From: Acidobacteriota bacterium
GTDB lineage: Bacteria; Acidobacteriota; Blastocatellia; HR10
Reading direction: 5' to 3'
DNA: 64,000 nucleotides
Assembly: GCA_030550025.1 (NCBI GenBank)
Contig: JAUQQC010000005.1
Coordinates: 138,857-202,856, forward strand
Notes under the pieces: generated by a model
Told to the model about the DNA's origin: nothing
Seen by the model: the letters and a program-made list of their open reading frames with translations, nothing else
Database searches by the model: none
Made by a program: the position numbers and the translations under genes
Shown: in pieces, positions 26,004-47,893 of the stretch
How positions within the stretch are numbered: the first letter of the stretch is position 1
Layout: the number at the start of each line of letters is the position of its first letter

Positions 26004-26020
<17 letters not shown>
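24617..26020 (+). CDS. membrane-anchored TPR-repeat protein with C-terminal beta-rich domain
   Basis: ORF track 467 aa. TM ALFLLIWLALLGYGAHSLV, TPR-like helices (AVAHFRQAVALSPYDVRYWVGLGRAFEANGKWEQAARAYERAI), then ~150-aa beta-rich C-terminus. True start uncertain. Confidence 0.55.
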
Positions 26021-28426
<2,406 letters not shown>

Positions 28427-28434
28427 GGACGTTC

Positions 28435-28666: not shown

Positions 28667-28686
28667 AGTCCGCATGCGGGATTCAG

Positions 28687-30311: not shown

Positions 30312-30343
30312 GGTCACGCACCTTGGGTTGGCGTCTGACCCCC

Positions 30344-31873
30344 ATGCCCAAATTGGCGGCCGAATTCGAGTTCGGGCTTTCGGAGCGAGAACCGACGAGT
30401 GCGCTTCTTGTCCGAGCGGCACGCGGTGCGTTCTGGTCCTGGAGCGCGCAAGTCCTCAAGCAGCTTCTACAGCTTGCGATTATGGCGATTCTCGCGCGAT
30501 GGCTCACTCCGGCCGATTTCGGACGCCTGGCGATGATCGGCGTCGTGACGGGGTTCTTGAGCCTCTTCGGCGAATTGGGGATCGGCCCCGCTCTGATCCA
30601 GAAGCGCGAGATCGGGAGCGCGCACCTCTCGGCCGCCTTCTGGGGAAGCCTCGCAGCCGGTCTGGTGTTGATGTTCCTGCTGATGCTCGGCGCGCCGCTT
30701 ATCGCCAGCGTGTACGCGGACGCGCAGCTTGTGCCGCTTGCGCTGGCACTCGCCGCGAATTTCCCGCTGGTCGCTCTGGCGACGGTGCCGATCAACCTCC
30801 TGCAGCGAGAGCTCCAGCTTGGGCGGCTCGCTGCGGTGGAGCTGCTCGCGCTCGTACTTGGCGGCGCGGTCGCCGTGGGTCTGGCACTTCGCGGAGGGGG
30901 GGCATGGAGCTTGGTGGGACAAACGCTCGCGGCCTCAGGGGCGACGGCCATAGCGGCGTGGGGGGTGATCGCCGTTCGCGTCCAAGAAGTGGGGAGCCCC
31001 GTGAGCGTGGATCGCGGGGTCCTTCGAGATCTGTTTCGCTTCGGACGACCCCTCGTGGGGATCAACGTCCTGAATTACGTCGCTCGAAACGCGGACAATG
31101 CGCTCATTGGGAAGTTCCTGGGAGCGCAGGCGCTCGGGTATTATGCGCTCGCCTATCGGCTGCTGCTCTTCCCGCTGCAAAACCTCTCTTGGGCGCTCGG
31201 GCGCGCGCTCTTGCCGGCGCTGGCGCGAGTATCCGATCCCGAGCACGTGCGCCTCGCGTACCGGCGCATGGTTGAAGGGATCGCCATCGTGGCCTTTCCG
31301 ATGATGATCGGCATGGCCATTGTCGCTCCCGAAGTCGTTCGTCTCCTCTATGGGCCGCAATGGGAGCGCGCCATCTTCCTAGCACGCGTCTTCTGCGGCA
31401 TCGGAGCGTTGCAAGCGATTGGGACGACGATTGGGCCACTCTGTCTCTCCCAAGGGCGACCGGACGTCTTATTCCGATGGAATCTCATCTTCACGCCCGC
31501 GGTCGTCGGCAGCATCGCGCTTGGCCTTCGGTGGGGGATCGAAGGCGTCGCCCTGGCTTATGCGAGCACGAGCGCTGCCGCCTGGTACTTCTCGCACGCG
31601 CTCGCCAATCGGGTCATTGCGCTGCGGATGCGCGTCTTTCTGCGCGCGCTCGCGCCCGCCGCCGTGAGCACGCTCGTCATGGCCGTCGGGATCCTCTTCG
31701 CGCGGGTCTGGTTCATCCGTCCGCACATCTCGAGCGCTCTTGCGGCCTTAGCGTTGCACGTGGGCCTTGGTGCGAGCCTCTACGTTCTCGCGCTCAGCCG
31801 TCTCCGACCGAATGCGCTCGGTGAATTGCGCGAGCTCGTGCGCCTCTTCGTTCGGAGGAATCTGAGCGAATGA
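30344..31873 (+). CDS. wzx: polysaccharide flippase (Wzx / MOP superfamily)
   Basis: ATG at 30344 (MPKLAAEFEFGL...) in frame with track ORF 29978..31873. About 509 aa with ~12-14 TMs; typical MOP-flippase N-terminus. Confidence 0.7.
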   Translation: MPKLAAEFEFGLSEREPTSALLVRAARGAFWSWSAQVLKQLLQLAIMAILARWLTPADFGRLAMIGVVTGFLSLFGELGIGPALIQKREIGSAHLSAAFWGSLAAGLVLMFLLMLGAPLIASVYADAQLVPLALALAANFPLVALATVPINLLQRELQLGRLAAVELLALVLGGAVAVGLALRGGGAWSLVGQTLAASGATAIAAWGVIAVRVQEVGSPVSVDRGVLRDLFRFGRPLVGINVLNYVARNADNALIGKFLGAQALGYYALAYRLLLFPLQNLSWALGRALLPALARVSDPEHVRLAYRRMVEGIAIVAFPMMIGMAIVAPEVVRLLYGPQWERAIFLARVFCGIGALQAIGTTIGPLCLSQGRPDVLFRWNLIFTPAVVGSIALGLRWGIEGVALAYASTSAAAWYFSHALANRVIALRMRVFLRALAPAAVSTLVMAVGILFARVWFIRPHISSALAALALHVGLGASLYVLALSRLRPNALGELRELVRLFVRRNLSE

Positions 31874-31977
31874 GCGCCAGGGCGTGCACTGCGGGTTTCG
31901 CCCTTGCCGACTCCTTTCGTGCGAATTTACCCTCTATGCCTCTTGGCGTGAGGCAGGCGAAAGTGAGAGAGCAGCCT

Positions 31978-33153
31978 ATGGAGACCATCGTGACGGCGAA
32001 ACCGAAGACGTTTCCCATCCGCTTCGACCGCAACGAATGGGCAGGTGCGTTCGGGGACTTGGGCACGGACTTCCCGCTCGTCGTGGGCGTCACGCTCGTG
32101 GCCAATCTCGACAGCGCGAGCGTGCTCACCATGTTCGGCCTCATGCAGATTCTGACGGGATTGCGGTATCGCCTCCCGATGCCGGTGCAACCGCTCAAGG
32201 CAATGGCTACCATCGTGATCACGCAGAAGCTCGGCGGCTCCATCCTCTACGGAGCGGGATTGGCCATCGGCGTCATCATGCTGCTTCTCTCTCTGTCGGG
32301 GCTTATTGACTGGCTGGCACGGGTCATCCCCAAAAGCGTCGTGCGCGGGATTCAATTCGGGCTCGGTTTGCAACTGGCGCTGCTTGCCTTGCGGGAATAT
32401 GTGCCGGCCGACGGCCTCTCCGGATATGCGCTCGCCGCCGTGGGATTCAGTCTCACGCTCCTGCTATTGGGGAATCGGCGATACCCGGTGGCGTTGCTCC
32501 TGGTCCTGATCGGCTTCGCCTACAGCTTCGCATTCAAAATCCCCGTCTCTGCCCTCGTTCAAGGCGTTGGCCTGAATCTGCCGAAGGTTCACGTTCCTCA
32601 GTGGTCGGACATCCTGACGGGCTTTTTCCTTCTGGTGTTGCCGCAAATCCCCCTCTCGCTCGGGAACGCGATCCTGGCCACGCGACAGATCGTCGAAGAC
32701 CTCTTCCCCGAGCGCCGGGTCACGGTGCGACAGATCAGCCTCACGTACGCAGTGATGAACGTGACGAACCCATTTTTCGGCGGCGTTCCCACGTGCCATG
32801 GCGCCGGGGGGATTGCCGGACACTACGCCTTTGGCGCGCGCACGGGTGGTTCGGTGATCATCGAAGGTGCGCTCTATATGCTGCTGGGCCTCTTCTTCGG
32901 ACGGGGGTTCGACGCGATCGTGAAGATCTTCCCGCTGCCCATTCTGGGCATCATCTTGTTCTTCGAGGGCGTGACCCTTCTGCGCCTGGTGCGGGAGGGA
33001 GCCCCGTCTCGAGGCGACTGGATGACCATCTTGCTCGTTGGACTTCTGGCGGTCGGACTCCCCTACGGGTATCTCATCGGGATGTTCGTCGGCATCGTCT
33101 TCGCCTTCTTGATGAAGCGCGGTCTTGTCGTCCTGGAAGCTAAAGGGCTGTAG
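31978..33153 (+). CDS. putative sulfate/molybdate-type anion transporter (MOT-like)
   Basis: Start set to ATG 31978 (METIVTAKPKTFPIRF...). Polytopic membrane protein with NPFFGGVPTCHGAGGIAGHYAFGARTGG, which I recognise as the sulfate/molybdate transporter family signature. Confidence 0.55.
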   Translation: METIVTAKPKTFPIRFDRNEWAGAFGDLGTDFPLVVGVTLVANLDSASVLTMFGLMQILTGLRYRLPMPVQPLKAMATIVITQKLGGSILYGAGLAIGVIMLLLSLSGLIDWLARVIPKSVVRGIQFGLGLQLALLALREYVPADGLSGYALAAVGFSLTLLLLGNRRYPVALLLVLIGFAYSFAFKIPVSALVQGVGLNLPKVHVPQWSDILTGFFLLVLPQIPLSLGNAILATRQIVEDLFPERRVTVRQISLTYAVMNVTNPFFGGVPTCHGAGGIAGHYAFGARTGGSVIIEGALYMLLGLFFGRGFDAIVKIFPLPILGIILFFEGVTLLRLVREGAPSRGDWMTILLVGLLAVGLPYGYLIGMFVGIVFAFLMKRGLVVLEAKGL

Positions 33154-33238
33154 CCGAAGCGGGGGCCTCGGCAACGAGAGCGAGAATCGGCAAGACCTGG
33201 CGCTCGCGATGTTCGCTCGGATGCATCGGACGAACCCA

Positions 33239-34432
33239 ATGAAGAATATCGAGGACGCACGGCTTGTCGTCGCTGAGGTGAAGCCGGATTATCTGCCGCT
33301 GACGGAGACCTTCATCTACGAATACGTGCGCGCGCTGCAGCGCGTCCGCCCGATCGTCGTGGCCGAAGAGGTGAAACATCTGGAGCACTTCCCGGTCGAA
33401 GCGCTCGTCCGCGTACGTGCGCGGGGAATGACGGTAGGGGAGCGCATTGCGGATCGGTTGCAGGCCGCGCTGTTCGGATTTGAGAACGCGCGCGTCTACC
33501 GGTACTATGAGGCGCTGCGGCGTCTGCGCCCACATCTTGTGCACGCGCATTTCGGGCCGACGGGCGTCCTCCTGCTCGCCGCGACGCAGCGCCTGAAGGT
33601 GCCGCTCATCACGTCCTTTTACGGCTACGACCTCTCGGCGCTCGCGCGAGAGTCCGACTGGCGAGCGCGGTATCGTCATCTCTTCGCCCGCGGCGCGCTC
33701 TTTCTCGTCGAAGGCCCGCACATGCGCGAGCGACTCCTTCGGCTTGGATGCCCGTCGGAGAGGATTCGCCTGCAGCGCATCGCGATTGATCTCGACGAGT
33801 TCCCTTTCCGCCCGCGCGTTTGGCGCGAGGGGCCGGTTCGCCTGCTGCAGGTCGGGCGCTTGGTCGAGAAGAAGGGACACGAATACGCACTGCGGGCGTT
33901 CGCGCGCCTCCGATCGCGCGTTCGCGCGAGCGAGTTTTACGTTATCGGGGATGGGCCGTTGCGCTCGCATCTGGAACGGCTCGCCGAGGAGCTCGGCATT
34001 GCTGAGGCCGTACGATGGATGGGGGCCCTCCCGCGCGCGGCCTATCGCGAAGTGGCCGAACAATGCCATATCCTCGTGCAGCCGAGCGTCGTCGCCGCAA
34101 CCGGCGACGATGAGGGGGGAGCGCCGACGGTCCTCCTGGAGATGCAGGCCTCGGGCATGCCCATCGTCGCGACGCGCCACGCCGACATCCCCTATGTCGT
34201 TCGCGAAGGGGAAAGCGCTCGACTCGTCCCCGAGCGGGACGTTGCGGCGCTGGCCGATGCGCTTCTTGAGCTCATCGAGAATCGGGAGCGATGGCCGTCC
34301 ATGGCCGAAGCCGGCCGCACCTTCGTCGCCGAACGCCATGACATTCGTCGCGAAGCCCCTCGGCTGGAGGAGCTGTATTGGTCGGTGATCGAAGCGCCGT
34401 ATGCGGTCCCGTCCCTATCGGATGTCCCGTGA
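33239..34432 (+). CDS. glycosyltransferase family 4 (GT-B)
   Basis: ORF track 33125..34432. Start ambiguous (ATGs at 33209, 33221, 33239). C-terminal GT4 motifs EGGAPTVLLEMQASGMPIVATRHADIPYVV. Confidence 0.7.
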   Translation: MKNIEDARLVVAEVKPDYLPLTETFIYEYVRALQRVRPIVVAEEVKHLEHFPVEALVRVRARGMTVGERIADRLQAALFGFENARVYRYYEALRRLRPHLVHAHFGPTGVLLLAATQRLKVPLITSFYGYDLSALARESDWRARYRHLFARGALFLVEGPHMRERLLRLGCPSERIRLQRIAIDLDEFPFRPRVWREGPVRLLQVGRLVEKKGHEYALRAFARLRSRVRASEFYVIGDGPLRSHLERLAEELGIAEAVRWMGALPRAAYREVAEQCHILVQPSVVAATGDDEGGAPTVLLEMQASGMPIVATRHADIPYVVREGESARLVPERDVAALADALLELIENRERWPSMAEAGRTFVAERHDIRREAPRLEELYWSVIEAPYAVPSLSDVP

Positions 34433-34438
34433 GCATCT

Positions 34439-35815
34439 ATGCCGCGTCCAGTCTTGTTCATCGCGCTGGCTTTCCCCCCGCAAAACAGCAGCGGCACATT
34501 TCGCTCGGTGAAGTTCGTCAAATATCTCGGCGAGTTCGGATGGGAACCCATCGTCATCACGCTCGATTGGGCGCGCGTGCTCGCGCCGCAGGAGCGAGAC
34601 GAGGGGCTGCTCGACGACGTGCCTCCCGATCTACCCGTTTACCGACTCGCGCCCTTCAATCCGGTGCGCGCTCTTGGTGAACGTGTGCGGCGAAAGCTCC
34701 CGGTCGTCTCCCCTTCGGGAGGCGAGGTTGGCCCCGTCACCTATTCCGAGGTCTGGAATGAAGAGCCGCCGCGCTCGTGGGGCTATCGGTTGCTGCGCGC
34801 GCTGTATCACTTCGGCTTGGCGCCTCTTGGCGATGAGCATTTCTATTGGATATGGCGAGCGCTGCCCACGTGCGCGCGGATCGCACGCCGGCATCAAGTG
34901 GAGGCGATCTTTGTCTCCGTGAGCCCGTGGACCTCAGCCATGCTCGGCGTTTGGCTCAAGCGGTGGCTCCATCGGCCCCTCGTCCTGGATTTCCGCGATT
35001 ACTGGACGCTCTGGCCGATCAAAGCGCGACGTCCCGTTCGCGATCGCCTCGACGCTTGGGCGGAGCGATGGGTCGTGCGCGCGGCCGATCGCCTCATCTG
35101 TGTGCACGAAGCCATGGCCGAGGACTTCGCACGACTCGTTCCGGAGACGGCCGCGCGCTCGGCGGTCATCCCGAACGGATATGATGCGGAGGATTTTCGG
35201 ACGATCGCGCGCGTATCCCCTGAAGCCGGCACGCCGACGACGCTTGTGCATGCGGGCATGGTGTGGGGGGATGCCGCCGCACCTCTCCTGGACGCCGTCG
35301 CTTGGCTCAAGGAGCAAGCGCCGGCGTCATGGCGAGTGCATTTCGTGGGTGGATTGCCTCCGTCGAATCTGCGCTTCGTGCGCGAGCGTGGATTGCAGGA
35401 GGTGGTGGCGATCGAGCCGCGCACGACGCATCGCGAAGCGCTGGCGCGCATGGTCGCGGCCGATGTCCTGATTCTCCTTATCACCAGCCATGAGGGGGGG
35501 AAGAAGTGGCTCCCCGGAAAGCTCTTCGAGTACATGGCCGCCGGACGTCCGATCCTCGCCGTGACGCCGTCGGGACTGGCTTCGGCGTTGATCGAAGAGG
35601 CCGGAGTCGGCACGAGTGTGGATCCTCGAGAGCGCGAGCGATTGCGCGCGCTGCTACGGGATGCGGCCCTTGACCCCGAAGGCTTCGCGCGCCAGTTTTA
35701 TCGCCCGCAGGAGGCGGTCATCCGCCGTTACGAGCGGCGCGCGTTGACGCGCCGCTTGGCCGAGATATTGGAGGAGATCGTTGATCGCTCTCGCGCGAAG
35801 ACGCGCTCGCCATAA
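34439..35815 (+). CDS. glycosyltransferase (GT-B, group 1-like) with atypical N-terminal region
   Basis: ORF track 458 aa. C-terminal half has GT-B features (KLFEYMAAGRPILAV); N-terminal ~180 aa not recognised. Confidence 0.6.
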   Translation: MPRPVLFIALAFPPQNSSGTFRSVKFVKYLGEFGWEPIVITLDWARVLAPQERDEGLLDDVPPDLPVYRLAPFNPVRALGERVRRKLPVVSPSGGEVGPVTYSEVWNEEPPRSWGYRLLRALYHFGLAPLGDEHFYWIWRALPTCARIARRHQVEAIFVSVSPWTSAMLGVWLKRWLHRPLVLDFRDYWTLWPIKARRPVRDRLDAWAERWVVRAADRLICVHEAMAEDFARLVPETAARSAVIPNGYDAEDFRTIARVSPEAGTPTTLVHAGMVWGDAAAPLLDAVAWLKEQAPASWRVHFVGGLPPSNLRFVRERGLQEVVAIEPRTTHREALARMVAADVLILLITSHEGGKKWLPGKLFEYMAAGRPILAVTPSGLASALIEEAGVGTSVDPRERERLRALLRDAALDPEGFARQFYRPQEAVIRRYERRALTRRLAEILEEIVDRSRAKTRSP

Positions 35816-36950
35816 TGCGCCGGACGGCGAAGGGATTCGCGTTGTTCACGTTTCGCCCACGTATTTTGGCGAGCGTTCGATCCTCGGTGGAGGAGAGCGC
35901 TACGCGACCGAACTGGCGCGGGCGATGGCTCGGCTGACGCCCACACGGTTGGTGAGCTTCGCCACGTGCGCGGACGAGCGGGAGCCGGTGGTGGCTGAGA
36001 CGTCGCTTGAAGTGCGCCTCTTTCGCCCTTTCTGGTACCCGCGTGGTCAGCGAACGAATCCCGTCAGCGTCCGATTCCTCACGGCGCTCGCCGATGCCGA
36101 CGTCATCCATTGCCATCAATTCCACGTCGTCGCGACGACGCTCGCGATCGCGTATGCCCGAGCGACGGGCAAGCGCGTCTTCGTCACGGACCTGGGCGGA
36201 GGGGGATGGGATCTCTCCTATCGCTTCGACACGGGGCGATGGGTGGACGGCTTCCTCCACCTCTCCCACTTCTCCGCGCGACGGTTCGCGCGGTACGAGG
36301 GGAAGAATCGCATCGTCTTCGCCGGTGTGGACGTCGAACGATTTCGTCCCCTGCCTGGGCGCACGTATGAGACGGTGCTCTATGTCGGGCGGCTGCTTCC
36401 GCACAAAGGGATCAATTATCTCATCGAGGCCGTAGACGCGACGATCGAGCTGCGCGTGATCGGCCGGCTGTGGGAGCCACAGCTCGGTGCGACGCGCAGC
36501 GCGGAGTATCTGGAACTGCTGCGGACGCTAGCGCGGGGCAAGCGCGTGCGCTTCATCTTCGATGCCGATGACGAACGGCTGGTGCGCGAGTACAATGCGG
36601 CGCTCGCGGTGGTCCTTCCCTCCGTGTACACGGACGTGTTCGGGGCGCAGCATCCGACTCCGGAGCTGTTCGGATTGACCCTCCTGGAGGCCATGGCGTG
36701 CGCGACGCCGGTGATCGCGACGGCGGTGGGCGCGCTGCCGGAGATCGTCGAGGAAGGGGTGACGGGATTTCTCGTCCCCCCGAACGACGTGCGCGCGCTG
36801 GCCGATCGCCTTCAGTGGCTGCGGCGACATCCCCAAGAGGCGCGCCGCATGGGAGAGCGAGGGCGCGCGCGCGCCCTGGAGCGGTTCACTTGGGAGGCCG
36901 TCGCGCGCCGCTGCCTGGCGATTTATCGCGAGGTGCTCCGCACCGGATGA
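35781..36950 (+). CDS. glycosyltransferase family 4
   Basis: ORF track 389 aa. GT4 motifs FGLTLLEAMACATPVIATAVGALPEIVEEGVTGFLV. Overlaps the previous gene by 35 nt if the ATG at 35781 is used. Confidence 0.7.
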   Translation: MIALARRRARHNAPDGEGIRVVHVSPTYFGERSILGGGERYATELARAMARLTPTRLVSFATCADEREPVVAETSLEVRLFRPFWYPRGQRTNPVSVRFLTALADADVIHCHQFHVVATTLAIAYARATGKRVFVTDLGGGGWDLSYRFDTGRWVDGFLHLSHFSARRFARYEGKNRIVFAGVDVERFRPLPGRTYETVLYVGRLLPHKGINYLIEAVDATIELRVIGRLWEPQLGATRSAEYLELLRTLARGKRVRFIFDADDERLVREYNAALAVVLPSVYTDVFGAQHPTPELFGLTLLEAMACATPVIATAVGALPEIVEEGVTGFLVPPNDVRALADRLQWLRRHPQEARRMGERGRARALERFTWEAVARRCLAIYREVLRTG

Positions 36951-38191
36951 AGAGCGCACCAATGCGCATCGTGCACATTGCCACGCATGGGGAGATTGTC
37001 GGCGGCACGGAGACGTATGCTGCGGACCTGCATCGGCTCCTGGAGCGAGAGGGACATGAGATCACACTGCTTCACGGCTTGGCCGTCGCGGAACGACCTC
37101 GAGCGATCACGCCTGCGCGCGTCCATGTCCCCGCCCTGCGACCGGATGCCGGGCCGTGGCCGCGACGCGTTGCCGACGTCCGCCGGATCGTGGAGCGGCT
37201 CGCCCCTGATGTCATCCTCGCGCACGATGTGGAGGAGGCCGATCTGCTCCACCTTCTCGCTCAGCTTCGCCCCACGATCCCTTTCGTCCACGTCCACAGC
37301 CGCTACGTGTGTCCGGGACATGGGAAATTCTATGCGCGCCAGAAGCGCGTTTGCCCACGCCCCTTCGGACCGTATTGCCTCATCGCCCCGTATCTTCACG
37401 GGTGCGCGACGCGCCGACCGTGGCGCCTTATGGCCGATGTGCGCACGACACGACGCTGGATCGAAGTCGCGCGCGAGCTACCGCGCGTGCTGGTGGCGAG
37501 CCAGTATATGAAGCGCGAGCTTGTGGCCGTCGGTCTGCCTGAAGATCGGATCGTCGTGAATCCCATTTTCGTGCAGCCCGCGCTTGTGGGGGAGGAGCGC
37601 GCGCTTCCAGAGTCAGCAGTCCCCTCGGCCCCTCTGCCCATGGTTCTCTTCTGCGGACGTCTGTACGCGCACAAAGGCGCTGACCTTCTCCTCCGCGCGT
37701 TGGAGTTGGTCACGCCTGCCGTTCGCGCCGTCTTCATCGGCGAGGGGCCGGAGCGCGCACGATTGGAGCGCTTGGCCGCGCGCGTGCCAACGCGGCATAC
37801 CGTCTCCTTCCTCGGATGGCTCGATCGCCCGTTCATCTTCCACCTCTATCGCCGCGCTCACGCCGTCGTCGTCCCGTCGGTTTGGCCCGAGCCCTTCTGT
37901 CGCGTCAGCGCCGAGGCGATGTGGCATGGGACGCCGGTCATCGCCTTTCGCGTCGGAGCGCTCCCGGAATGGGTGCGCGACGGCCAGACGGGAGTGCTCG
38001 TCGAGCCCGGAGATGTTCGCGCGCTAGCGGCGGCCATCGAACGTGTGGTGACCGACAGCGAGCTGATGATCGCGCTGCGCACTCGCGCCCGGGAATTCGC
38101 CGAGGAGATGTTCGCCTCCTGGCGCCATCTGGAACGTCTGATGCGCGCTTTCGAAGACGCGAGACGGGAGTGGGCGAGCGCCACCTCTTGA
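36947..38191 (+). CDS. glycosyltransferase family 4
   Basis: ATG at 36947 (MKSAPMRIVHIATHG...) overlaps the upstream stop (ATGA). GT4 motifs PEPFCRVSAEAMWHGTPVIAFRVGALPEWVRDGQTGVLV. Confidence 0.75.
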   Translation: MKSAPMRIVHIATHGEIVGGTETYAADLHRLLEREGHEITLLHGLAVAERPRAITPARVHVPALRPDAGPWPRRVADVRRIVERLAPDVILAHDVEEADLLHLLAQLRPTIPFVHVHSRYVCPGHGKFYARQKRVCPRPFGPYCLIAPYLHGCATRRPWRLMADVRTTRRWIEVARELPRVLVASQYMKRELVAVGLPEDRIVVNPIFVQPALVGEERALPESAVPSAPLPMVLFCGRLYAHKGADLLLRALELVTPAVRAVFIGEGPERARLERLAARVPTRHTVSFLGWLDRPFIFHLYRRAHAVVVPSVWPEPFCRVSAEAMWHGTPVIAFRVGALPEWVRDGQTGVLVEPGDVRALAAAIERVVTDSELMIALRTRAREFAEEMFASWRHLERLMRAFEDARREWASATS

Positions 38192-38205
38192 GGTGCGAAA
38201 GGAAG

Positions 38206-39378
38206 ATGCGGATCCTCATCCTCTGTCCCGACTATCCGCCGAAACGAAGCGGGCTGGCGGATCACACGCGGCATCTGGCCGAACATCTTCGCCGACTTGG
38301 CCGAAACGATGTCCTCGTGCTCACAACGCGCGATTCGGGAGAGCGAACGGCAGCGGCAGAGGAGGAGACAGAAGGGATCATCGTGCGCCGGGTCATCGCG
38401 CGGTGGGGATGGCGCGGCCTCGCGACGCTCGCGCGAGAGATCGCCCGCGCGGCACCGGATTGGATCCTCACGCCCTACGTGCCGCATGCCTATGGGCGAG
38501 GGGGGATCAACCTGGCCCTCCCTCTCGCGCTCGTTCGAGAGCGGCTCCGAGGCCGACGCATGCTGCTTCTGGTCCATGAGCTCTACGCCGACCTCTCGCT
38601 CTTCCCCCTCCGGCATCTGATCGCAGCGCTTGTGCAGCGCGCGATGTTCTGGCTCGCCGTCATCGCCGCGCGCGGCATCGTCGTCTCCATCGAACCCTGG
38701 GCGATGTGGCTTCGCCAAGCGTGGCCGATCCGATGGACGTGCGCGCGAATCTTTCACCTGCCCAGCCCCTCCAACATCGAGCCGGTGCCGACTGACCGCG
38801 AGCGCGCGCGCCGAGAATTCGGCATTCGAGAGGAAGAGATCGTCCTCGTGTTCTTCGGGACTCTGCATGTCTCGAAGAAGCGTGCGTGGCTCCTTCGGAG
38901 CGTGGAGGCGCTCTCGGCTCAAGGGATTCCGGCGCGCTTGCTTCTGATCGGGCCGGAATCGCAAGAGCTCCTTGCGCTCGCTCCGGCGGAAGTGCGGAGG
39001 AGGATCCTCGCCCTCGGATATGCGGATGCGGCGACCGTCTCGCGCGCTCTGCAGGCGAGCGACATCTTCCTCCTCCCGTTGAGCGATGGCGTCTCGACGC
39101 GACGCTCCTCGCTCATGGCGGCGCTCAGTCACGGGCTTCCGGTCGTGGGGACGTCGGGGCGATTGACCGACGAGCCGCTCGCACGCTCAGGAGCACTCCT
39201 TCTCTCGCCCGCCGATGATCTGGACGCATTCCTGCGACACGTCCTCACCTTGGCCGAAGACGCCGAGCGGCGTCGGCATCTCGGCGAACGCGGGCGCGCA
39301 CTCTATCGCGAGCGCTACAGCTGGCCCGTCGTCGTCGAACGCCTGCTCGCCATTTTGCGCGACCTCGAAGGGGATTGA
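38206..39378 (+). CDS. glycosyltransferase family 4
   Basis: ATG at 38206 (MRILILCPDYPPKRSGLADH...) with GAAAGGAAG RBS. GT4-like C-terminal domain SLMAALSHGLPVVGTSG. Confidence 0.75.
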   Translation: MRILILCPDYPPKRSGLADHTRHLAEHLRRLGRNDVLVLTTRDSGERTAAAEEETEGIIVRRVIARWGWRGLATLAREIARAAPDWILTPYVPHAYGRGGINLALPLALVRERLRGRRMLLLVHELYADLSLFPLRHLIAALVQRAMFWLAVIAARGIVVSIEPWAMWLRQAWPIRWTCARIFHLPSPSNIEPVPTDRERARREFGIREEEIVLVFFGTLHVSKKRAWLLRSVEALSAQGIPARLLLIGPESQELLALAPAEVRRRILALGYADAATVSRALQASDIFLLPLSDGVSTRRSSLMAALSHGLPVVGTSGRLTDEPLARSGALLLSPADDLDAFLRHVLTLAEDAERRRHLGERGRALYRERYSWPVVVERLLAILRDLEGD

Positions 39379-39483
39379 CGCGCGCGGGAGGGCCGGCGCG
39401 GCAGAGCGATCGCGAGCGTTCGCTTGACGCAAGCGAGGGCGCGACCTACAATGTCCCTCTCGCGCGGCGAGGAGAAGACGCGT

Positions 39484-41738: not shown

Positions 41739-42161
41739 ATGGGCGCTGTGTGTGACACATCGGGCGAAGAGCGCGAACTCCAACAGTTGCGACACCGGTT
41801 GGAGCGAAACACGTGGCTTGTGCTCGCGGCCATGTTGCTCATGGCGGCATGGACGAAGGAACCGAGGGTCGTCCTTGGCGTGGCGCTGGGTGGGGGATTA
41901 GGCTGGGCGAACTACGAGTGGCTTTCGGCGAGCACGCGGACGCTCTTCGCCTCGATGGGAGCATCGGGGAAAGCCTCCCGTCGAGCGATCCTCTGGTTTG
42001 GTCTTCGCGTCCTGGTCATCTGGGGTGCCATTGGGCTCCTCTTCTGGAGCCGGCTGGTTGATGTCCTCGCGTTGGTCGCCGGATTCTGCGCCTTCGTCGT
42101 CGCCGTCATGGTGGAGGTCGGACGCCGCATCGGCCTCCTCATCCTGGGCAGAGGGGAATGA
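41739..42161 (+). CDS. small membrane protein, AtpI/AtpZ-like (by position upstream of atpB)
   Basis: ORF track 41589..42161. ATG at 41739 chosen (MGAVCDT...); 3-4 hydrophobic helices. Assignment rests on position and size only. Confidence 0.4.
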   Translation: MGAVCDTSGEERELQQLRHRLERNTWLVLAAMLLMAAWTKEPRVVLGVALGGGLGWANYEWLSASTRTLFASMGASGKASRRAILWFGLRVLVIWGAIGLLFWSRLVDVLALVAGFCAFVVAVMVEVGRRIGLLILGRGE

Positions 42162-42164
42162 GCG

Positions 42165-43010
42165 ATGTTTCTTCTGGCCGTTCAACCGGAAGCGGGGCCG
42201 GCGCATCATGTTCCGGCCATCGTCGAATGGGTTAACCAGGTTTTCGGTCCCACCGTCTATCGCTGGCAACAGGCGCTCATGCCCAGAGTCTACGGGCTCT
42301 TCGGTGCCGAATGGCATGGCGATCCGAATCTCCCGATTCCGACGCACATCGTCATGTTCTTCATCGCTGTGTTGCTGAGTACCGCGGGCCTTCGACTCTT
42401 GCTGGGGCGGCTCTCATTGGAGAATCCAAGTCCGCGACAACAAATGTTCGAGTTGCTCTTCAGCGGCTTGCGCAACCTGATGCGGGAGAACATCGGCCCG
42501 CACGGATTGAAGTACTTCCCTGTGATCGGAACCTTCGCCGTCGTCATCGGCGTATGCAATCTCATGGGGCTCATCCCGGGGCTCGTCGCGCCGACGGCCA
42601 ATTATAACGTTCCGCTCGCGCTCGCTCTGATGTCGTTCCTCTACTACAACTACATTGGCCTCAAGGAGAACGGGCTGGTCGAATACCTGCGCCATTTTGC
42701 CGGGCCGGTCCTGGCGATCGCGCCTTTGTTCTTCCCGGTCGAGATCGTGAGTAACTCGGCGCGGATCATCTCGCTCTCGATGCGTCTGTTCTGGAACATC
42801 TTCGGGGATGAGACGTTGGCGAGCGTCTTCAGTCAGATCGTCGCTTGGGGCGTGCCCGTGCTGCTGATGCCGCTCGGCCTCTTCGTCGCGCTCATGCAGA
42901 CGTTCATCTTCGTCATGCTCTCGATCATCTACATCGGCGAGGTGACGCATCACGCGGAGGCGAGCACGATCTCGCGCGTCGAACTCCAGGAGGAGGCGGC
43001 CCACGCCTGA
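42165..43010 (+). CDS. atpB: F0F1 ATP synthase subunit a
   Basis: ORF track 281 aa. Polytopic; conserved Arg region ISLSMRLFWNIFGDE matches the subunit a LSLRLFGNMxAGE motif. Confidence 0.85.
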   Translation: MFLLAVQPEAGPAHHVPAIVEWVNQVFGPTVYRWQQALMPRVYGLFGAEWHGDPNLPIPTHIVMFFIAVLLSTAGLRLLLGRLSLENPSPRQQMFELLFSGLRNLMRENIGPHGLKYFPVIGTFAVVIGVCNLMGLIPGLVAPTANYNVPLALALMSFLYYNYIGLKENGLVEYLRHFAGPVLAIAPLFFPVEIVSNSARIISLSMRLFWNIFGDETLASVFSQIVAWGVPVLLMPLGLFVALMQTFIFVMLSIIYIGEVTHHAEASTISRVELQEEAAHA

Positions 43011-43219
43011 CGCGAGGGGAGAGCGAAGGATAGACGCACCGGTGACGATGTCTTTCGCTCTCCGCTTGAGGCGGGGAGGGGGCCGGGGCTCGAAAGCGTT
43101 CGCGAGATTCGATGCCGTCTGGAGCTTTCGTCGGAAGAGGGGGACGAAAGTATACCGGGCATCGAAGGACTCATATGCCCCGCGCGACCCGAAACATCAC
43201 ACACTCCGAAGGAGGAGGC

Positions 43220-43534
43220 ATGAAGACGCACCTGACGAAGTGGACGTGGAGCATCGGTTCGCTTCTGTTCTTCGCCGCTCCGGTATGGGCGCAACAGGGC
43301 GGGGCGGGCGTTACCGATACGACATTCAAATACATTTCGGCTGCCTTCGGCATGGCGATTGCGGCGGCCGCCGCCGCTTACGCGGACTCGCGTGCCATCA
43401 GCGCGGCGTGCGAAGGCGTGGCGCGTAACCCGGGGGCCGGCGGACGCCTCCAAACGCTCATGCTCATTGGCGTCGTATTCATTGAGACGCTCGTGCTCTT
43501 CACGCTCGCTGTCATCTTCCTGAAGGTGGCGTGA
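43220..43534 (+). CDS. atpE: F0F1 ATP synthase subunit c with N-terminal signal-peptide-like extension
   Basis: ATG at 43220 with GGAGGAGG RBS. 104 aa: extension MKTHLTKWTWSIGSLLFFAAPVWAQQ, then c-subunit hairpin with GVARNPGAGGRL loop and carboxylate in LIGVVFIETLVLF. Confidence 0.85.
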   Translation: MKTHLTKWTWSIGSLLFFAAPVWAQQGGAGVTDTTFKYISAAFGMAIAAAAAAYADSRAISAACEGVARNPGAGGRLQTLMLIGVVFIETLVLFTLAVIFLKVA

Positions 43535-43644: not shown

Positions 43645-44592
43645 ATGAACAGCTTGCCGAAGAGAGATGTCTCACAAGGACGGCGCCTGTTATTGCTTGG
43701 TCTTGGCGCTCTTCTTCTGCTTATGACCATCCGCCTTCCTTCTCCAGCCCTCGACGAAGGATATGCCCACCCGGAGATGCTGGTCGAGACCGAATGGCTC
43801 GCTCAGCACGTGAATGATCCTAACGTTCGCATCGTGGATCTGCGTTCGGCCGAGGCGTATGCTGAAGGGCACATCCCGAATGCCGTCCATCTCGATCAGC
43901 GCGCACTTCGGGATACGGAGGATCGGCTCCTGTACGTCCCGCCCCCAGAGCGATTCGCGATGTTGATGAGTGAACTCGGCATCGGCGATCGCACGCGCGT
44001 CGTCGCGTACGATGACCTCGGAGGACAAGCAGCCGCGCGACTTTGGTTCGTCCTCGATTATTACGGGCATCCGACGTGCAGCCTCTTGAACGGCGGGTGG
44101 CAGAAGTGGGTGAAAGAAGGGCGTCCGCTGAGCCGCGAGATGCCGCGCTTTGAGAAGGCGGAGTTTCACATTCGGATGAATCCGCCAACGATATGCACGG
44201 CGCCGGAGTTGGCGAGCAAGCTTCGCGCAGACGCCGTCGTCATCATTGACGCTCGATCTCCAGAAGAATACCGAGGTGAGCGCGTCCTGGGAGCACGAGG
44301 GGGACACATTCCGGGTGCCCTCAATGTGGAGTGGCGGATGAATTTGACCGAAGGCGATGTGCCGGTCTTCAAATCAGCGGCCGAATTGCGCCGCCTCTAC
44401 GAATCGCTCGGCGTCACTCGGGACAAGGAGATCATCACATACTGCCAGGGCGGAGGGCGCGCCGCCCACACGCTCTTCGTCCTGCGCTTGCTCGGATACA
44501 CGAAGAGCCGCAACTACTACGGATCGTGGCAGGATTGGAGCGCGCGGCCGGAGCTCCCTGTTGAGAAGCCGAAGTCGCCGGAACCTCGGTGA
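43645..44592 (+). CDS. thiosulfate sulfurtransferase (tandem rhodanese domains), secreted
   Basis: ORF track 315 aa. Signal peptide; two rhodanese domains with active-site Cys loop ITYCQGGGRAAH. Confidence 0.8.
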   Translation: MNSLPKRDVSQGRRLLLLGLGALLLLMTIRLPSPALDEGYAHPEMLVETEWLAQHVNDPNVRIVDLRSAEAYAEGHIPNAVHLDQRALRDTEDRLLYVPPPERFAMLMSELGIGDRTRVVAYDDLGGQAAARLWFVLDYYGHPTCSLLNGGWQKWVKEGRPLSREMPRFEKAEFHIRMNPPTICTAPELASKLRADAVVIIDARSPEEYRGERVLGARGGHIPGALNVEWRMNLTEGDVPVFKSAAELRRLYESLGVTRDKEIITYCQGGGRAAHTLFVLRLLGYTKSRNYYGSWQDWSARPELPVEKPKSPEPR

Positions 44593-44662: not shown

Positions 44663-44692
44663 TTGCCTGACGCGAAGAGGCGAGAGTATACT
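44663..44692 (+). promoter_or_regulatory. candidate sigma70-type promoter (TTGCCT-18-TATACT)
   Basis: TTGCCT at 44663-44668 and TATACT at 44687-44692, about 60 nt upstream of the KAS start; RBS AGAGGGGGAATGGG follows. Confidence 0.35.
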
Positions 44693-44751
44693 TGAGCCCG
44701 CAAGGCGAGCAAGAGCGGGGGCGTCGGATACTCAAGAGGGGGAATGGGCCT

Positions 44752-46023
44752 ATGTGGCGCGCACCGATCGTTCCCCGTCGCGCGGTCATCACCGGGATCG
44801 GCTGCTTGAGTCCGAACGGCATTGGACGGCAGCAATTTTGGGATGCGTTACGGGAGGGGCGGAGCGGCGTCGGGCGGATCACGCGCTTTGATGCTTCGGA
44901 CTTACCCGTACAGATTGCTGCTGAAGTCAAAGGGATTGACGTATACGAGAGCATCCCTGCGAAAGAGCGCCAGCATTTGCCGCGCGTCGTCCCCATGGCG
45001 CTCTGGGCCGCGCGTGAAGCTCTGGAAGACGCCGGGATTCATCCCGAAGACCTTCCGCTTGAGGAGCGGCGGCGCATGGCCGTGATCCTCGGCAGCGGAG
45101 GCGGAGGGCTCGAATTCACCGAGCGGCAATACCGCTACTACTTCGCCGGCGAAGCGAAGAAGGCGAGCATCTACACGATCGCCAGCTCTACGATCGGGAC
45201 GCTCTCGAGCGAACTCTCAACGGCATTCGGATTGCGCGGGATGAGTCACGTCATCTCGACCGGCTGCGCGAGTGCGATCGACGCCGTCGCCTATGCCGCT
45301 CAGGCCGTGCAGCTAGGGCGCGCCGATGTCGTGATCACCGGTGGCGTGGACGCTCCGCTCTCGCACGGCATCCTGATGGCCTTCTGCGGCATGCGCGCGC
45401 TCACGGCCTCGTGGAATCATGCGCCTGAGCGTGCCTCGCGCCCCTTCAGTCGAGATCGCGACGGATTCGTTCTGGGCGAAGGGGCGTGGATCTTCATCGT
45501 GGAAGAGCGAGAACGCGCGCGGCGGCGCGGAGCGACGATCTACGCCGAAATCCTCGGCTATGGAGCGACCTGCGACGCCCATCACCGCGTGCGCGTGGAC
45601 GAAAGTGGCGAAGAGCCGGCGCGCGCCATGCGACTGGCACTGGAAGAGGCCGGCCTCTCTCCCACGGACGTTGGGTACCTCAACCTGCACGGGACCTCCA
45701 CGGTGCTCAACGACCGGATCGAGACGCGCGCTGTGAAACTCGCCTTCGGCGAGCACGCGTACCGCATTCCGATGAGCGCGACGAAATCCCTGATCGGCCA
45801 CCCGCAAGGCGCATGTGGGGCGGCGGGATTGGCAGCAGCGCTTCTGGCCGTGCACGAAGGGTTCATTCATCCGACGATCAATCTCGACGAGCCGGATCCC
45901 GAATGCGATCTCGATTACGTGCCGCATCGGGGTCGGAAGGCACGCGTGCGCGTGGCCCTAGTCAATTGCCTGAGCTTCGGATCCAAAAACGCCGCGCTCG
46001 TCGTGGGCAAGGATGAAGAATGA
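44752..46023 (+). CDS. beta-ketoacyl-[ACP] synthase (KAS I/II type)
   Basis: ATG at 44752 (MWRAPIVPRRAVITGIGCLSP...). Active-site Cys in HVISTGCASAIDAV, His motifs YLNLHGTSTVLND and TKSLIGHPQGACGAAG. Confidence 0.8.
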   Translation: MWRAPIVPRRAVITGIGCLSPNGIGRQQFWDALREGRSGVGRITRFDASDLPVQIAAEVKGIDVYESIPAKERQHLPRVVPMALWAAREALEDAGIHPEDLPLEERRRMAVILGSGGGGLEFTERQYRYYFAGEAKKASIYTIASSTIGTLSSELSTAFGLRGMSHVISTGCASAIDAVAYAAQAVQLGRADVVITGGVDAPLSHGILMAFCGMRALTASWNHAPERASRPFSRDRDGFVLGEGAWIFIVEERERARRRGATIYAEILGYGATCDAHHRVRVDESGEEPARAMRLALEEAGLSPTDVGYLNLHGTSTVLNDRIETRAVKLAFGEHAYRIPMSATKSLIGHPQGACGAAGLAAALLAVHEGFIHPTINLDEPDPECDLDYVPHRGRKARVRVALVNCLSFGSKNAALVVGKDEE

Positions 46024-46739
46024 GCATGAGAGGCCTTCCCGATTTCTCCCGACGCGCGACGGCGCGAGAATGGATGGATGATCCGGCCACCCCATTTGAA
46101 GACGTCGCGGCGGCGCTTCGGGATTTGGAACGCATTAACGTCGTCCTGCGCGTGAGATCGGCGCTCGCGCGCCATCTCTTTCCGCGGATCGAGCGGCTCG
46201 GGCGCTCTCCGGTGCGCATCCTGGATGTGGCGACGGGAGCAGCCGATATTCCTCGCGCGATCGCGGCATGGGCGCGAGGGCGAGGACGGCGCGTGGAGAT
46301 CGTGGCGCTCGATCTCGGCTGGTCCGTCCTCCAATACGCGCGACGCACGATCGAAGGGTATCCGGAGATTGTGCTCGTGCGCGCGGACGCGCGGCGCTTG
46401 CCTTTCCCCCGTGACGCTTTCGACTTCGTCATCGCGACCGAATTCCTCCATCATCTGGAGGACGAAGAGATCCTCCCTTTTCTGCAACGCCTCGCGGAAC
46501 TCGCGCGCGAAGCTTTTCTCATCAACGACCTGCGGCGACATCCCGTCGCGTATTACGGATTCCGCGCGTTCTCGCGCCTGTTCCTGCGCAGTCGGCTCGT
46601 GCGCCACGACGGCCCGATCTCCATCCTCCGAGGGTTCACCGTGCGGGAAGGCGAAGCGCTGAGACGGAGGCTTGGCCTGCGCGCGTTCTCGCTCCACCGC
46701 CACTTCCCATATCGCCTCGTCCTCATCGGTGAGCGATGA
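46020..46739 (+). CDS. class I SAM-dependent methyltransferase
   Basis: ORF track 239 aa. Start overlaps the KAS stop. Rossmann-type SAM-binding region VRILDVATGAADIPRAIAAW and acidic loop DFVIATEFLHHL. Confidence 0.7.
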   Translation: MSMRGLPDFSRRATAREWMDDPATPFEDVAAALRDLERINVVLRVRSALARHLFPRIERLGRSPVRILDVATGAADIPRAIAAWARGRGRRVEIVALDLGWSVLQYARRTIEGYPEIVLVRADARRLPFPRDAFDFVIATEFLHHLEDEEILPFLQRLAELAREAFLINDLRRHPVAYYGFRAFSRLFLRSRLVRHDGPISILRGFTVREGEALRRRLGLRAFSLHRHFPYRLVLIGER

Positions 46740-47893
46740 GTTGGGACGTCTTGATCATTGGGGGAGGACCGGCAGGAGCCGTGGCGGCCGCCGATCTGGC
46801 TCGGCGCGGCTATCGCGTGGGTGTGCTCGAACGCAAGCGCTTCCCACGCGCGAAACTCTGCGGAGAATTTCTCGCGCCAAGAGGAGTTGCGCTCCTTCAG
46901 TCGGTCGGCCTCTTGGCCCCTCTCCTTCGACTCGGGGCACACGTCGTGCGAGAGGCCGCGTTCGTTTCGTCTCGGGGCCACCGCTACCCCCTCCCCTTAT
47001 CTCGATTTCCCGACGATGTGGGATTTGGTCTCGGGATCCGCCGCGCGACGCTCGATCCCCTTCTGCTCGAATACGCGCGAGCGTGTGGCGCCGAAGTCTT
47101 GGAGCAGGTGTGCGTGACCGAGGCGATCGCGTCAAGCGGACGAATCGTCGGCGTGCGCGCGCGCATGCTCCCTGTGGGGAGGCGCGTGACGTTCCTCGCC
47201 TCCGTCGTCATAGAGGCCAGTGGGAGAGTACGCGCGCTCGAGCGGCCCTCTTGCTCCCCGAAGTCGGAGAGCGGCTCGCGATTCTTCGCATTTCAGGCAC
47301 ACGTGTCTGGGATCGAGGGCATCGGCGAGGCCGTCGAGCTGTACTTCTACCCCTCCGGATATGGCGGCCTCGTGCGCCTGGAGGGCGATCTCCACAACCT
47401 CTGCGGCCTCACGACACAAGAGGTGATGCGCCGCGCTGGGAACAGCTTCGAGCGGCTGCTCGCGCTGACGCTCCGGCAGAACCCACGAGCCCGAGAGAAG
47501 CTTCGGAACGCGCGGCTCGAGGGTCCGCTCACAGGCTGCGGACCTTTACGCTTTGGCCTCAGCGCTCTCCCCCGCACGCATATGGCGATCGGCGATGCAG
47601 CCGCGCTGATGGATCCGTTCTTCGGTCAAGGCATCTCCAATGCCATGGAGAGTGGGCTTCTGGCCGCCGCGCTCGTGGATGCCGCCTTCCGCGAGGGCGA
47701 TTTGACGACGCTCGCGTCGCGCTATGCGCGGGCCTTTCGACGACGATTCGCCAGAACATGGCGCGCCGCTGCACTGTTGCGTCCGGCCGCCTTGCACGGC
47801 GACATCGGCGATCGCATGCTCGCGCAACTCCCCGAGCGTGCGCTCGCGCAGCGCCTGTTGCTCCGCCTCATCTTCGGACGCAGAATCGGCTGA
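46736..47893 (+). CDS. FAD-dependent oxidoreductase (geranylgeranyl-reductase-like)
   Basis: ORF track 385 aa. N-terminal dinucleotide-binding motif DVLIIGGGPAGAVAAADLARRGYRVGVLER. Start overlaps the methyltransferase stop. Confidence 0.7.
   Translation: MSWDVLIIGGGPAGAVAAADLARRGYRVGVLERKRFPRAKLCGEFLAPRGVALLQSVGLLAPLLRLGAHVVREAAFVSSRGHRYPLPLSRFPDDVGFGLGIRRATLDPLLLEYARACGAEVLEQVCVTEAIASSGRIVGVRARMLPVGRRVTFLASVVIEASGRVRALERPSCSPKSESGSRFFAFQAHVSGIEGIGEAVELYFYPSGYGGLVRLEGDLHNLCGLTTQEVMRRAGNSFERLLALTLRQNPRAREKLRNARLEGPLTGCGPLRFGLSALPRTHMAIGDAAALMDPFFGQGISNAMESGLLAAALVDAAFREGDLTTLASRYARAFRRRFARTWRAAALLRPAALHGDIGDRMLAQLPERALAQRLLLRLIFGRRIG

Follow-up and report, generated by a model that had tools for sequence, protein, structure and literature searches.

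Several described bacterial operons combine a type III polyketide synthase (PKS) with a methyltransferase and a flavin-dependent oxidoreductase. For the hidABC operon, HidB has been proposed as the hydroxylase of the ring, and recombinant HidA was found to methylate 5-pentadecylresorcinol (PMC6836626). Among planctomycetal type III PKS genes, 58 of 96 lie in operons of methyltransferase, flavin-dependent oxidoreductase (FDO) and type III PKS; these synthases make alkylresorcinols, and co-expression of mtr and fdo adds one methyl group, probably C-linked (PMC10896814). The srs and mycobacterial pks10 operons lead to alkylquinones or polyketide quinones; the alkylquinones can serve as electron carriers (PMC5916927). 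The phenolic lipids and polyketide quinones of type III PKS operons are linked to antibiotic tolerance in Streptomyces and to low-oxygen respiration in mycobacteria, occur in the cyst envelopes of Azotobacter, and include bioactive cyanobacterial metabolites. Here we examine a three-gene cassette in a 64,000-nucleotide stretch of DNA (the window) from an Acidobacteriota bacterium of the Blastocatellia (contig JAUQQC010000005.1 of assembly GCA_030550025.1, positions 138,857 to 202,856). The cassette encodes a β-ketoacyl-acyl carrier protein (ACP) synthase (KAS), an S-adenosylmethionine (SAM)-dependent methyltransferase and a flavin adenine dinucleotide (FAD)-dependent oxidoreductase, referred to below as the flavoprotein. 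In our view it is best read as a ketosynthase-based version of the hidABC, srsABC and pks10 phenolic-lipid operons, with its three enzymes forming a self-contained module. A preliminary description, made from the letters of the window, had proposed a dedicated pathway to a methylated and reduced acyl-derived product that could not be predicted from sequence alone.

Condensing enzymes beside the methyltransferase

A methyltransferase profile built from an 11-sequence alignment was searched against a collection holding a single genome for each species; together with exact-protein lookups this gave 85 loci with this methyltransferase family. Open reading frames (ORFs) in these loci were called mechanically, and the comparison genomes are mostly metagenome-assembled genomes (MAGs), some with doubtful taxonomic labels. 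A KAS of the same clade as the one in the window (the window clade; 55–95% identity to the window KAS) stands directly 5' of the methyltransferase in 39 of the 85 loci, and a type III PKS adjoins the methyltransferase in 15; the two condensing enzymes are found together in none. The window contains no type III PKS, and none lies within 6 kb of a locus with a window-clade KAS. The sole locus with both a KAS and a type III PKS (L082) carries a different, more FabF-like KAS.

The flavoprotein gene follows the KAS and methyltransferase genes in 17 of the 39 loci. These full triads come from Blastocatellia/Pyrinomonadaceae, Vampirovibrionales, a Coleofasciculaceae cyanobacterium, Eisenbacteria, Binatia, Planctomycetota and delta-proteobacterial MAGs. 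The other 22, all from soil Blastocatellia, have no adjacent flavoprotein gene, and 19 more of the 85 loci, from other Blastocatellia, pair the methyltransferase with the flavoprotein without an adjacent KAS. In most of the 15 type III PKS loci the flavoprotein is present as well; they belong to Methylomirabilota/Rokubacteria, Poribacteria, alpha-proteobacteria, Planctomycetota, Geomonas and others. A sixteenth locus of this kind, found outside the 85 in a Bryobacteraceae MAG (L092), has overlapping genes for type III PKS, methyltransferase and flavoprotein. Within a single phylum, then, Bryobacteraceae carry the type III PKS form, whereas Blastocatellia (Pyrinomonadaceae and the window lineage) carry the KAS form.

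Phylogenies of the methyltransferase and the KAS were simple neighbour-joining distance trees without support values. In them the methyltransferases linked to type III PKS genes branch at the base, and those linked to a KAS make up a large derived group, the internal branching of which matches that of the KAS tree. Several loci from MAGs labelled Clostridia, Heliobacteriaceae or Heliomicrobium (L011, L016, L021, L026–L028, L051 and L053) have a KAS and a methyltransferase that nest inside Blastocatellia clades; judging from these placements, the taxonomic labels are probably wrong.

An either/or distribution is classically the mark of an enzyme displaced by an unrelated one with the same function. 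We favour such a displacement here, because the pattern coincides with common tailoring genes, with apparent co-evolution of KAS and methyltransferase, and with remodelling of the KAS around an intact catalytic triad.

The tailoring pair also occurs with ketosynthases of other descent. One Thermomicrobiales and one Longimicrobiales MAG have the order methyltransferase, flavoprotein, SRPBCC polyketide cyclase, KAS, and the KAS is again a different, more FabF-like enzyme. The Thermomicrobiales locus (L070, 4856–9678) begins with a UbiA prenyltransferase; its gene set resembles a quinone pathway. A second Thermomicrobiales locus (L071) has methyltransferase, flavoprotein and KAS, with the cyclase unconfirmed, and a KAS-SRPBCC fusion protein exists among the KAS homologs. 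Because these Thermomicrobiales and Longimicrobiales clusters carry a different KAS beside the same tailoring pair, enzymes of the KAS I/II fold have been recruited to it more than once, and once together with a cyclase. Locus L082, from a Nitrospirota MAG (5968–10612), contains, in this order, a methyltransferase, a weakly peptidase-U32-like protein, the KAS and the type III PKS. The peptidase-U32 family includes the O2-independent hydroxylases UbiU and UbiV.

The ketosynthase clade

Both ketoacyl-synt domains, N- and C-terminal, are present in the KAS, which aligns over its whole length with FabF structures, best with that of Thermus thermophilus (1j3n, 359 bits), to which it is about 46% identical. 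Its Cys172, His313 and His350 and the gatekeeper Phe409 correspond to C163, H303, H340 and F400 of FabF, in agreement with the initial view of a bona fide KAS with a Cys-His-His triad. The score against the fabF equivalog model TIGR03150 is 449.4 bits, below the cut-off of 493.75; the looser 'KAS II' subfamily model NF005589 is passed with 438 bits at a cut-off of 387. The cyanobacterial ortholog likewise falls short of the TIGR03150 cut-off (456 bits), and the Prokaryotic Genome Annotation Pipeline (PGAP) labels orthologs of the window KAS 'beta-ketoacyl-ACP synthase family protein'.

Placement relative to FabF, the check suggested in the preliminary description, puts the KAS in a clade of its own. 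All 39 methyltransferase-linked enzymes are monophyletic in the neighbour-joining tree and separate from four canonical FabFs (Thermus, Bacillus, Listeria and E. coli) as well as from the KAS of four other clusters, which are more FabF-like. The numbering of the E. coli FabF sequence in the alignment reproduced C163, H303 and H340. The cyanobacterial member of the clade gives 470 bits with the window KAS as against 329 bits with the FabF of Synechocystis, no better than with FabFs of Firmicutes; because of these scores, it is by sequence clearly not the cyanobacterial housekeeping FabF.

At 21 alignment positions at least 90% of the 39 members share a residue that differs from the one common to the canonical FabFs, and 13 of these positions are invariant in all 39. 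The substitutions include, in E. coli FabF numbering, I108G, F132Y, I138T, A162G, E191D, M269R and T270V, as well as A302L, which gives NLHGT, L341P and L342Q, which give GHPQGA, and S397C, G402S and T403K, which give FGSKN. In at least 38 of the 39 members, Gly, Val, GHPQGA and FGSKN stand in place of the canonical Ile108, Thr270, GHLLGA and FGG(T/H)N, with the Cys-His-His triad and the gatekeeper Phe400 retained across the clade. In FabF structures Ile108 closes the acyl pocket and Thr270 contacts the malonyl carboxylate.

The resulting signature, GSGGGG...HHRV...NLHGT...GHPQGA...FGSKN, was sought in HMMER matches among 1.84 billion 50%-identity representatives. The output was dominated by giant PKSs with multiple ketosynthase domains, and single-domain matches were used: six representatives (49–65% identity) have the signature, and the four canonical-like ones examined (45–48% identity) do not. 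These comparisons establish the KAS as part of a separate, strongly conserved, FabF-derived clade in which the surround of the active site is remodelled. Its identification as the housekeeping FabF of a fab operon was rejected on score, synteny and signature. The cassette had also been proposed to be a dedicated functional unit rather than a part of bulk fatty-acid synthesis, and this proposal gains support from the adjacency of KAS and methyltransferase in 39 loci of several phyla, from the congruent trees, and from the sub-cut-off fabF score, the PGAP naming and a cyanobacterial member unlike FabF.

Other homologs of the KAS have unusual architectures. Several FabF-like ketosynthases, 45–50% identical to the window KAS, are N-terminally fused to PilZ or PocR(-GGDEF) domains (P0379, P0385, P0393, P0405, P0446, P0476 and P0484), an unexpected tie of a condensing enzyme to cyclic di-GMP signalling. 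In the KAS-like proteins P0386, P0387 and P0424, (N/A)AYGN replaces NAHGT, which turns the first catalytic His into Tyr; P0387 additionally bears a C-terminal SRPBCC polyketide-cyclase domain.

The methyltransferase and the flavoprotein

The second gene encodes a class I SAM enzyme, as its domain matches and the preliminary description agree. Its sole strong NCBIfam match is the uncharacterised model PRK06202 (161 bits), and it is 35–43% identical to methyltransferases adjoining type III PKS genes. The AlphaFold 2 model (predicted local distance difference test score, pLDDT, 94) has yeast Coq5, a benzoquinol C-methyltransferase, as its best Protein Data Bank (PDB) fold match; the other fold neighbours are CysG/BelI, NovO/CouO and the C-methyltransferase domains of PKSs, and the template modelling (TM) scores of all these matches, Coq5 included, are only 0.5–0.63. 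MenG/UbiE was rejected as an identity for the enzyme (22–28 bits against cut-offs of 158–420), and the likeness to Coq5 is one of fold only. BioC gave no match, and neither did the cyclopropane/mycolic-acid synthase family (CMAS, PF02353) to which BfaB belongs.

The flavoprotein had been called geranylgeranyl-reductase-like. The geranylgeranyl-reductase superfamily (GG-red-SF, TIGR02032) is indeed its best NCBIfam match, but the 122.3 bits lie below the cut-off of 158.8, and the second match, QhpG, is also below its cut-off at 111 bits. The superfamily indicated by these matches holds geranylgeranyl reductases, phenol and pyrrole halogenases, and QhpG/LodB-type hydroxylases. Invariant motifs among the homologs are FPRxKLCGEF, His189, GYGG, Cys223 and GD...DPF; FPRAKLCGEF is unchanged in 31 homologs and contains the reductase-type Cys of K-x-C-G-G/E near the flavin. 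Halogenases are the best PDB matches by sequence and by fold, and the Ta0516 geranylgeranyl reductase fits equally well (TM about 0.80), so that fold searches did not separate reductase from hydroxylase. A flavin-dependent halogenase was nevertheless rejected: WxWxIP is absent (YPSGYGGL stands where FasV has GWLWYIPL), and a Val occupies the place of the Lys in FPIKRGG of CndH, the catalytic Lys of halogenases.

Both proteins have counterparts in type III PKS operons. The RefSeq genome of Falsirhodobacter algicola has the order type III PKS, methyltransferase, 'FAD-dependent monooxygenase', and Paludisphaera borealis has methyltransferase, FAD protein, type III PKS, which is the hidABC order. 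The methyltransferases of these two operons are 35–38% identical to that of the window. The Falsirhodobacter pair has the same NCBIfam signatures as the window pair (PRK06202, here with 142 bits; GG-red-SF and QhpG), and the Paludisphaera FAD protein aligns over its full length with the window flavoprotein at 30% identity (E = 5e-20), with the K-x-C-G motif in common. By these profile and alignment matches, the window methyltransferase and flavoprotein belong to the same families as the partners of type III PKSs.

Gene layout and genomic neighbourhood

The three ORFs of the cassette are intact and translationally coupled and are, as first described, chained by two ATGA overlaps, both of which were read directly (Table 1). 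The mechanical ORF of the KAS opens at TTG 44692; the ATG at 44752 is the one preceded by the ribosome-binding site AAGAGGGGGAA. Independent gene calls in six metagenome contigs, those with an identical methyltransferase, give the same products of 423, 239 and 385 aa. These contigs derive from hot-spring metagenomes (record GxsBSedJan11 and others), and the genomes nearest to them are thermophilic Blastocatellia MAGs, which places the source among the Acidobacteria of subdivision 4.

Table 1. Position of the cassette, its control elements and its neighbours in the window
Feature	Position	Strand	Basis or remark
Sigma-70-like promoter candidate TTGCCT-18-TATACT (-35, 18-nt spacer, -10)	44663–44692	+	Consensus scan and conservation
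Conserved 24-nt leader block CGCAAGGCGAGcaaGAGCGGGGGC	44699–44722	+	Between -10 hexamer and ribosome-binding site
Purine-rich ribosome-binding site AAGAGGGGGAA	44734–44744	+	Direct reading; ends 7 nt before ATG 44752
KAS, FabF-derived β-ketoacyl synthase, 423 aa	44752–46023	+	ORF, domains and clade membership
Junction of KAS and methyltransferase genes, AGAATGAGCA	46017–46026	+	ATGA overlap
SAM-dependent methyltransferase, 239 aa, PRK06202/HidA-like family	46020–46739	+	Start overlaps KAS stop (ATGA)
Junction of methyltransferase and flavoprotein genes, GCGATGAGTT	46733–46742	+	ATGA overlap
FAD-dependent oxidoreductase, 385 aa, HidB/Fdo-like, geranylgeranyl reductase/halogenase/QhpG superfamily	46736–47893	+	Start overlaps methyltransferase stop (ATGA)
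Exopolysaccharide/O-antigen-like cluster	~24600–39400		
ATP-synthase genes (atpI, atpB, atpE)	41739–43534	+	
Two-domain rhodanese	43645–44592	+	
Lon-like protease, 820 aa	49095–51557	-	LonC-helical, LonB AAA + LID and Lon_C domains

All three genes are under purifying selection, with ratios of non-synonymous to synonymous divergence (dN/dS) of 0.06–0.07 for the KAS, 0.17–0.18 for the methyltransferase and 0.24–0.28 for the flavoprotein, computed against relatives whose synonymous divergence is 0.24–1.2 per site, varying by gene and relative.

The cassette was first described as having its own promoter. The sequence TTGCCT-18-TATACT is present, but as a pattern it is no better than chance: a consensus scan of 6.5 kb found one promoter-like site, against 1.0 +/- 1.0 in shuffles. 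What supports a promoter is the conservation of its hexamers in relatives. Five related genomes (L007–L011; synonymous divergence 0.35–0.84) retain TTGCC(T/C) and TA(T/C)ACT in the same position within a spacer between rhodanese and KAS genes that has diverged, and a more distant relative (L087) has TTGAAT-17-TAACCT at the equivalent position. A separate transcription start of the cassette from this predicted promoter is plausible.

The leader block downstream of it occurs once in the window. It fits the pattern CGCAAGGCGAGNNNGAGYGGGGGC in the six window-lineage contigs (L001–L006) and in related MAG loci (L007–L010), and, as CGCAAGGCGAG-N3-GAGYGGGGGC, it is kept in four of the five related genomes despite a synonymous divergence of 0.35–0.74 (L007–L010). 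The block may be an operator or a leader element. It showed no Rfam match and no covarying structure, on which grounds a riboswitch or other known RNA was rejected.

Neither an ACP gene nor a second KAS was found in the 64-kb window, and a search for AcpP homologs found none in any of 86 loci. No fab gene is among the Pfam-labelled genes within +/-10 kb of the cassette, and gene calls of the window-lineage contigs and of L087, L088, L091 and L093 contain no PP-binding or fab Pfam families. The cassette is thus not beside core fab genes, as had been noted at the outset, and acpP, fabG and fabD adjoin the KAS in none of the 39 loci. ORF clustering of the loci with the full triad revealed no further partner family across phyla, only lineage-specific synteny.

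The 5' neighbours on the same strand are atpI, atpB and atpE, followed by a two-domain rhodanese. The rhodanese was rejected as a fourth member and treated as a neighbour, since it is adjacent only in the thermophilic lineage and in L087, and the promoter-bearing spacer of 160 bp lies between. ATP-synthase genes recur just 5' of the module, in L088 (3047–7061), L091 (2492–6696) and L093 (807–4520) as in the window. Contigs of the Pyrinomonadaceae type have the order atpF-atpH-atpA-atpG-VanZ, and in L088 and L091 gidA-parA-parB lie ahead of these genes. In Blastocatellia the module thus behaves like vertically inherited core genome near the atp operon; its place beside ATP-synthase genes may be inherited synteny only or may reflect a link to respiration. 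Convergent to the cassette on its 3' side are genes for a class I/II aminotransferase and then the LonB-like protease, beyond which ccsA-like, hemA and hemC genes lie on the plus strand. Farther upstream, the large exopolysaccharide/O-antigen-like cluster encodes a TPR protein, a Wzy_C O-antigen ligase-like protein, a FemAB/GNAT-like acyltransferase, a Polysacc_synt flippase and five GT4 glycosyltransferases, with a MOT1-type molybdate transporter interposed.

Interpretation and alternatives

We put at roughly 40% the probability that the KAS builds a polyketide scaffold in place of a type III PKS, which the tailoring pair then methylates and hydroxylates. The KAS would start from a fatty acyl thioester; as no locus encodes an ACP, the housekeeping ACP would probably deliver it. 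Malonyl units would then be added in one or more decarboxylative condensations, with no reduction between them. The β-polyketo chain would cyclise to a head group of the resorcinol or pyrone type. Methylation of this ring, at O or C, would fall to the Coq5-like methyltransferase and its hydroxylation to the HidB-like flavoprotein. The predicted end product is a methylated, oxygenated alkyl-phenol or alkyl-quinone membrane lipid.

This departs in two respects from the preliminary description. The product is not wholly beyond prediction, as the tailoring families point to something phenolic-lipid-like: HidA-type enzymes methylate alkylresorcinols, and HidB-type enzymes are proposed ring hydroxylases. 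Nor does 'reduced' sit well with families that flank type III PKSs in operons of the hidABC and srs type, where ring hydroxylation is proposed; by this analogy a methylated and hydroxylated product is more likely than a methylated and reduced one. The cassette likely represents a route, not described so far, to a membrane lipid that is methylated and probably oxygenated. The more specific proposal, that a lone FabF-fold KAS without chain-length factor, cyclase or ACP iterates on a fatty acyl starter and releases a cyclised phenolic or pyrone head group, we regard as rather doubtful. Were it true, the enzyme would be a previously unrecognised minimal polyketide synthase, with which Blastocatellia and scattered other phyla would make a core lipid of the membrane or a carrier resembling a quinone.

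Several points weigh against the reading as a phenolic-lipid module. We know of no lone KAS I/II-fold enzyme, lacking chain-length factor, cyclase and ACP, that forms a resorcinol or pyrone ring; a ring-forming step by such an enzyme is something we purely infer, and no cyclase is present in any locus with a window-clade KAS. The triad is not obligatory, because 22 KAS-methyltransferase and 19 methyltransferase-flavoprotein loci have no third adjacent gene. The Cys motif of the geranylgeranyl-reductase type and a fold equally near to that reductase mean that the chemistry of the flavoprotein may be reduction and not hydroxylation. The link to HidA and HidB is one of operon-level homology, drawn through planctomycetal and proteobacterial operons. 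Finally, the KAS is the most conserved gene of its neighbourhood (dN/dS 0.06–0.07) and lies in core-genome synteny, which fits an essential role in fatty-acid synthesis too.

Such a role is the alternative that survives best, unlikely as we judge it. The KAS would only elongate fatty acids, as the FabF of the genome or as a FabF/FabB-like paralog with an enlarged acyl pocket; it would serve membrane lipids, or would provide the special long-chain acyl-ACP with which a type III PKS encoded elsewhere starts, and the methyltransferase and the flavoprotein would tailor the product of that PKS. The full triad with its gatekeeper Phe, the identity of about 46% to Thermus FabF and the NF005589 score above cut-off are what an elongating enzyme would show, as are very strong purifying selection and core-genome synteny. 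With no ACP nearby the housekeeping ACP must be used, and I108G could do no more than make the acyl pocket longer. At L082 one cluster does hold both a KAS and a type III PKS, and enzymes that supply starters, ArsA/D and FtpC/D, are usual in such clusters. Yet the KAS falls below the fabF equivalog cut-off, is never beside acpP, fabG or fabD in the 39 loci, and in its cyanobacterial member differs from the FabF of cyanobacteria. Throughout the clade, moreover, Thr270, GHLLGA and FGGT, which are identical or nearly so in the four canonical FabFs, have been replaced. A distal PKS would also be expected to keep its tailoring genes, and there is no type III PKS within 6 kb of the window-clade loci. 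Even if the KAS merely elongates, its strict either/or pattern with type III PKSs still needs explaining.

An improbable alternative is that the cassette makes methyl-branched fatty acids. The KAS would form a β-ketoacyl-ACP, which would be methylated at the alpha carbon as by the C-methyltransferases of PKSs, and a flavoprotein akin to geranylgeranyl reductase would reduce the hindered enoyl; in another version a double bond would be methylenated and then reduced, following the BfaB/BfaA logic of tuberculostearic acid. The best NCBIfam match and the K-x-C-G motif of the flavoprotein, its fold, as near to Ta0516 as to halogenases, and the PKS C-methyltransferase domains among the fold neighbours of the methyltransferase are consistent with either version. 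In some Acidobacteria of subdivisions 1, 3, 4 and 6, iso-diabolic acid bears an additional methyl group on C5 or C6 (PMC13274423). The cassette could relate to these C5/C6 methyls of iso-diabolic acid and of the brGDGTs (branched glycerol dialkyl glycerol tetraethers). To our knowledge, the enzymes that introduce the C5/C6 methyls of iso-diabolic acid have not been reported. Against such products, the methyltransferase is not of the cyclopropane/mycolic-acid synthase family of BfaB, and the same tailoring families serve type III PKS operons, in which the substrate is an aromatic ring. The Bryobacteraceae MAG, of subdivision 3, has the type III PKS version, and the triad is also found in Vampirovibrionales and a cyanobacterium.

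That the three genes are functionally unrelated and merely packed together by genome compaction is scarcely credible: flavoprotein and KAS can each separate from the methyltransferase in some loci, but both junctions are ATGA overlaps, the genes remain neighbours in Acidobacteriota, Vampirovibrionales, Cyanobacteria, Eisenbacteria, Binatia, Planctomycetota and delta-proteobacterial MAGs, and the KAS and methyltransferase trees are congruent.

If the KAS does stand in for a type III PKS, genome mining keyed to type III PKSs would miss a widespread pathway family, including a core one in Blastocatellia, and the known catalytic range of the KAS I/II fold would be extended. Blastocatellia are an abundant, poorly cultured group of soils and hot springs. 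The clade signature (HRV, NLHGT, GHPQG and FGSKN) offers a simple handle for finding these enzymes.

Comparison with known systems

No description of this KAS variant turned up in the literature, of which our coverage is incomplete, and known ketosynthase clusters match it in part. Its fold, length, Cys-His-His triad, gatekeeper Phe and 46% identity to the Thermus enzyme are those of FabF; unlike FabF, it lies below the equivalog cut-off, is not beside acpP, has about 20 replacements near the catalytic residues and travels with a methyltransferase. An aryl-polyene, type II PKS or dialkylresorcinol (DarAB) cluster was rejected, there being no partners of the chain-length factor, ACP, ketoreductase, dehydratase or KAS III type. 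An analogy to the proposed chemistry is the type II PKS ketosynthase with a TcmN-like SRPBCC cyclase, represented in this survey by the Thermomicrobiales and Longimicrobiales clusters, in which a KAS I/II fold likewise would have to iterate without reduction toward an aromatic head group. Unlike a minimal type II PKS, the window clade has a single KAS, and none of its loci contains a chain-length factor, a cyclase or an ACP of its own.

The strongest resemblance is to the type III PKS operons. Like hidABC of picocyanobacteria and the planctomycetal methyltransferase-FDO-type III PKS operons, the cassette is a small co-directional operon, often with overlapping genes, that comprises a PRK06202-type methyltransferase, a FAD oxidoreductase resembling geranylgeranyl reductase and QhpG, and one condensing enzyme. 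Two of the three protein families are the same, whereas the condensing enzyme of the window has the KAS I/II fold of FabF instead of the chalcone-synthase fold of a type III PKS, and it is placed first. A condensing enzyme in first position, followed by methyltransferase and flavoprotein, is the arrangement described in the literature for srsABC of Streptomyces griseus and for the pks10 operon of Mycobacterium smegmatis. These operons follow the logic of a methylated, oxygenated membrane lipid that we propose for the cassette, and differ from it in using a type III PKS.

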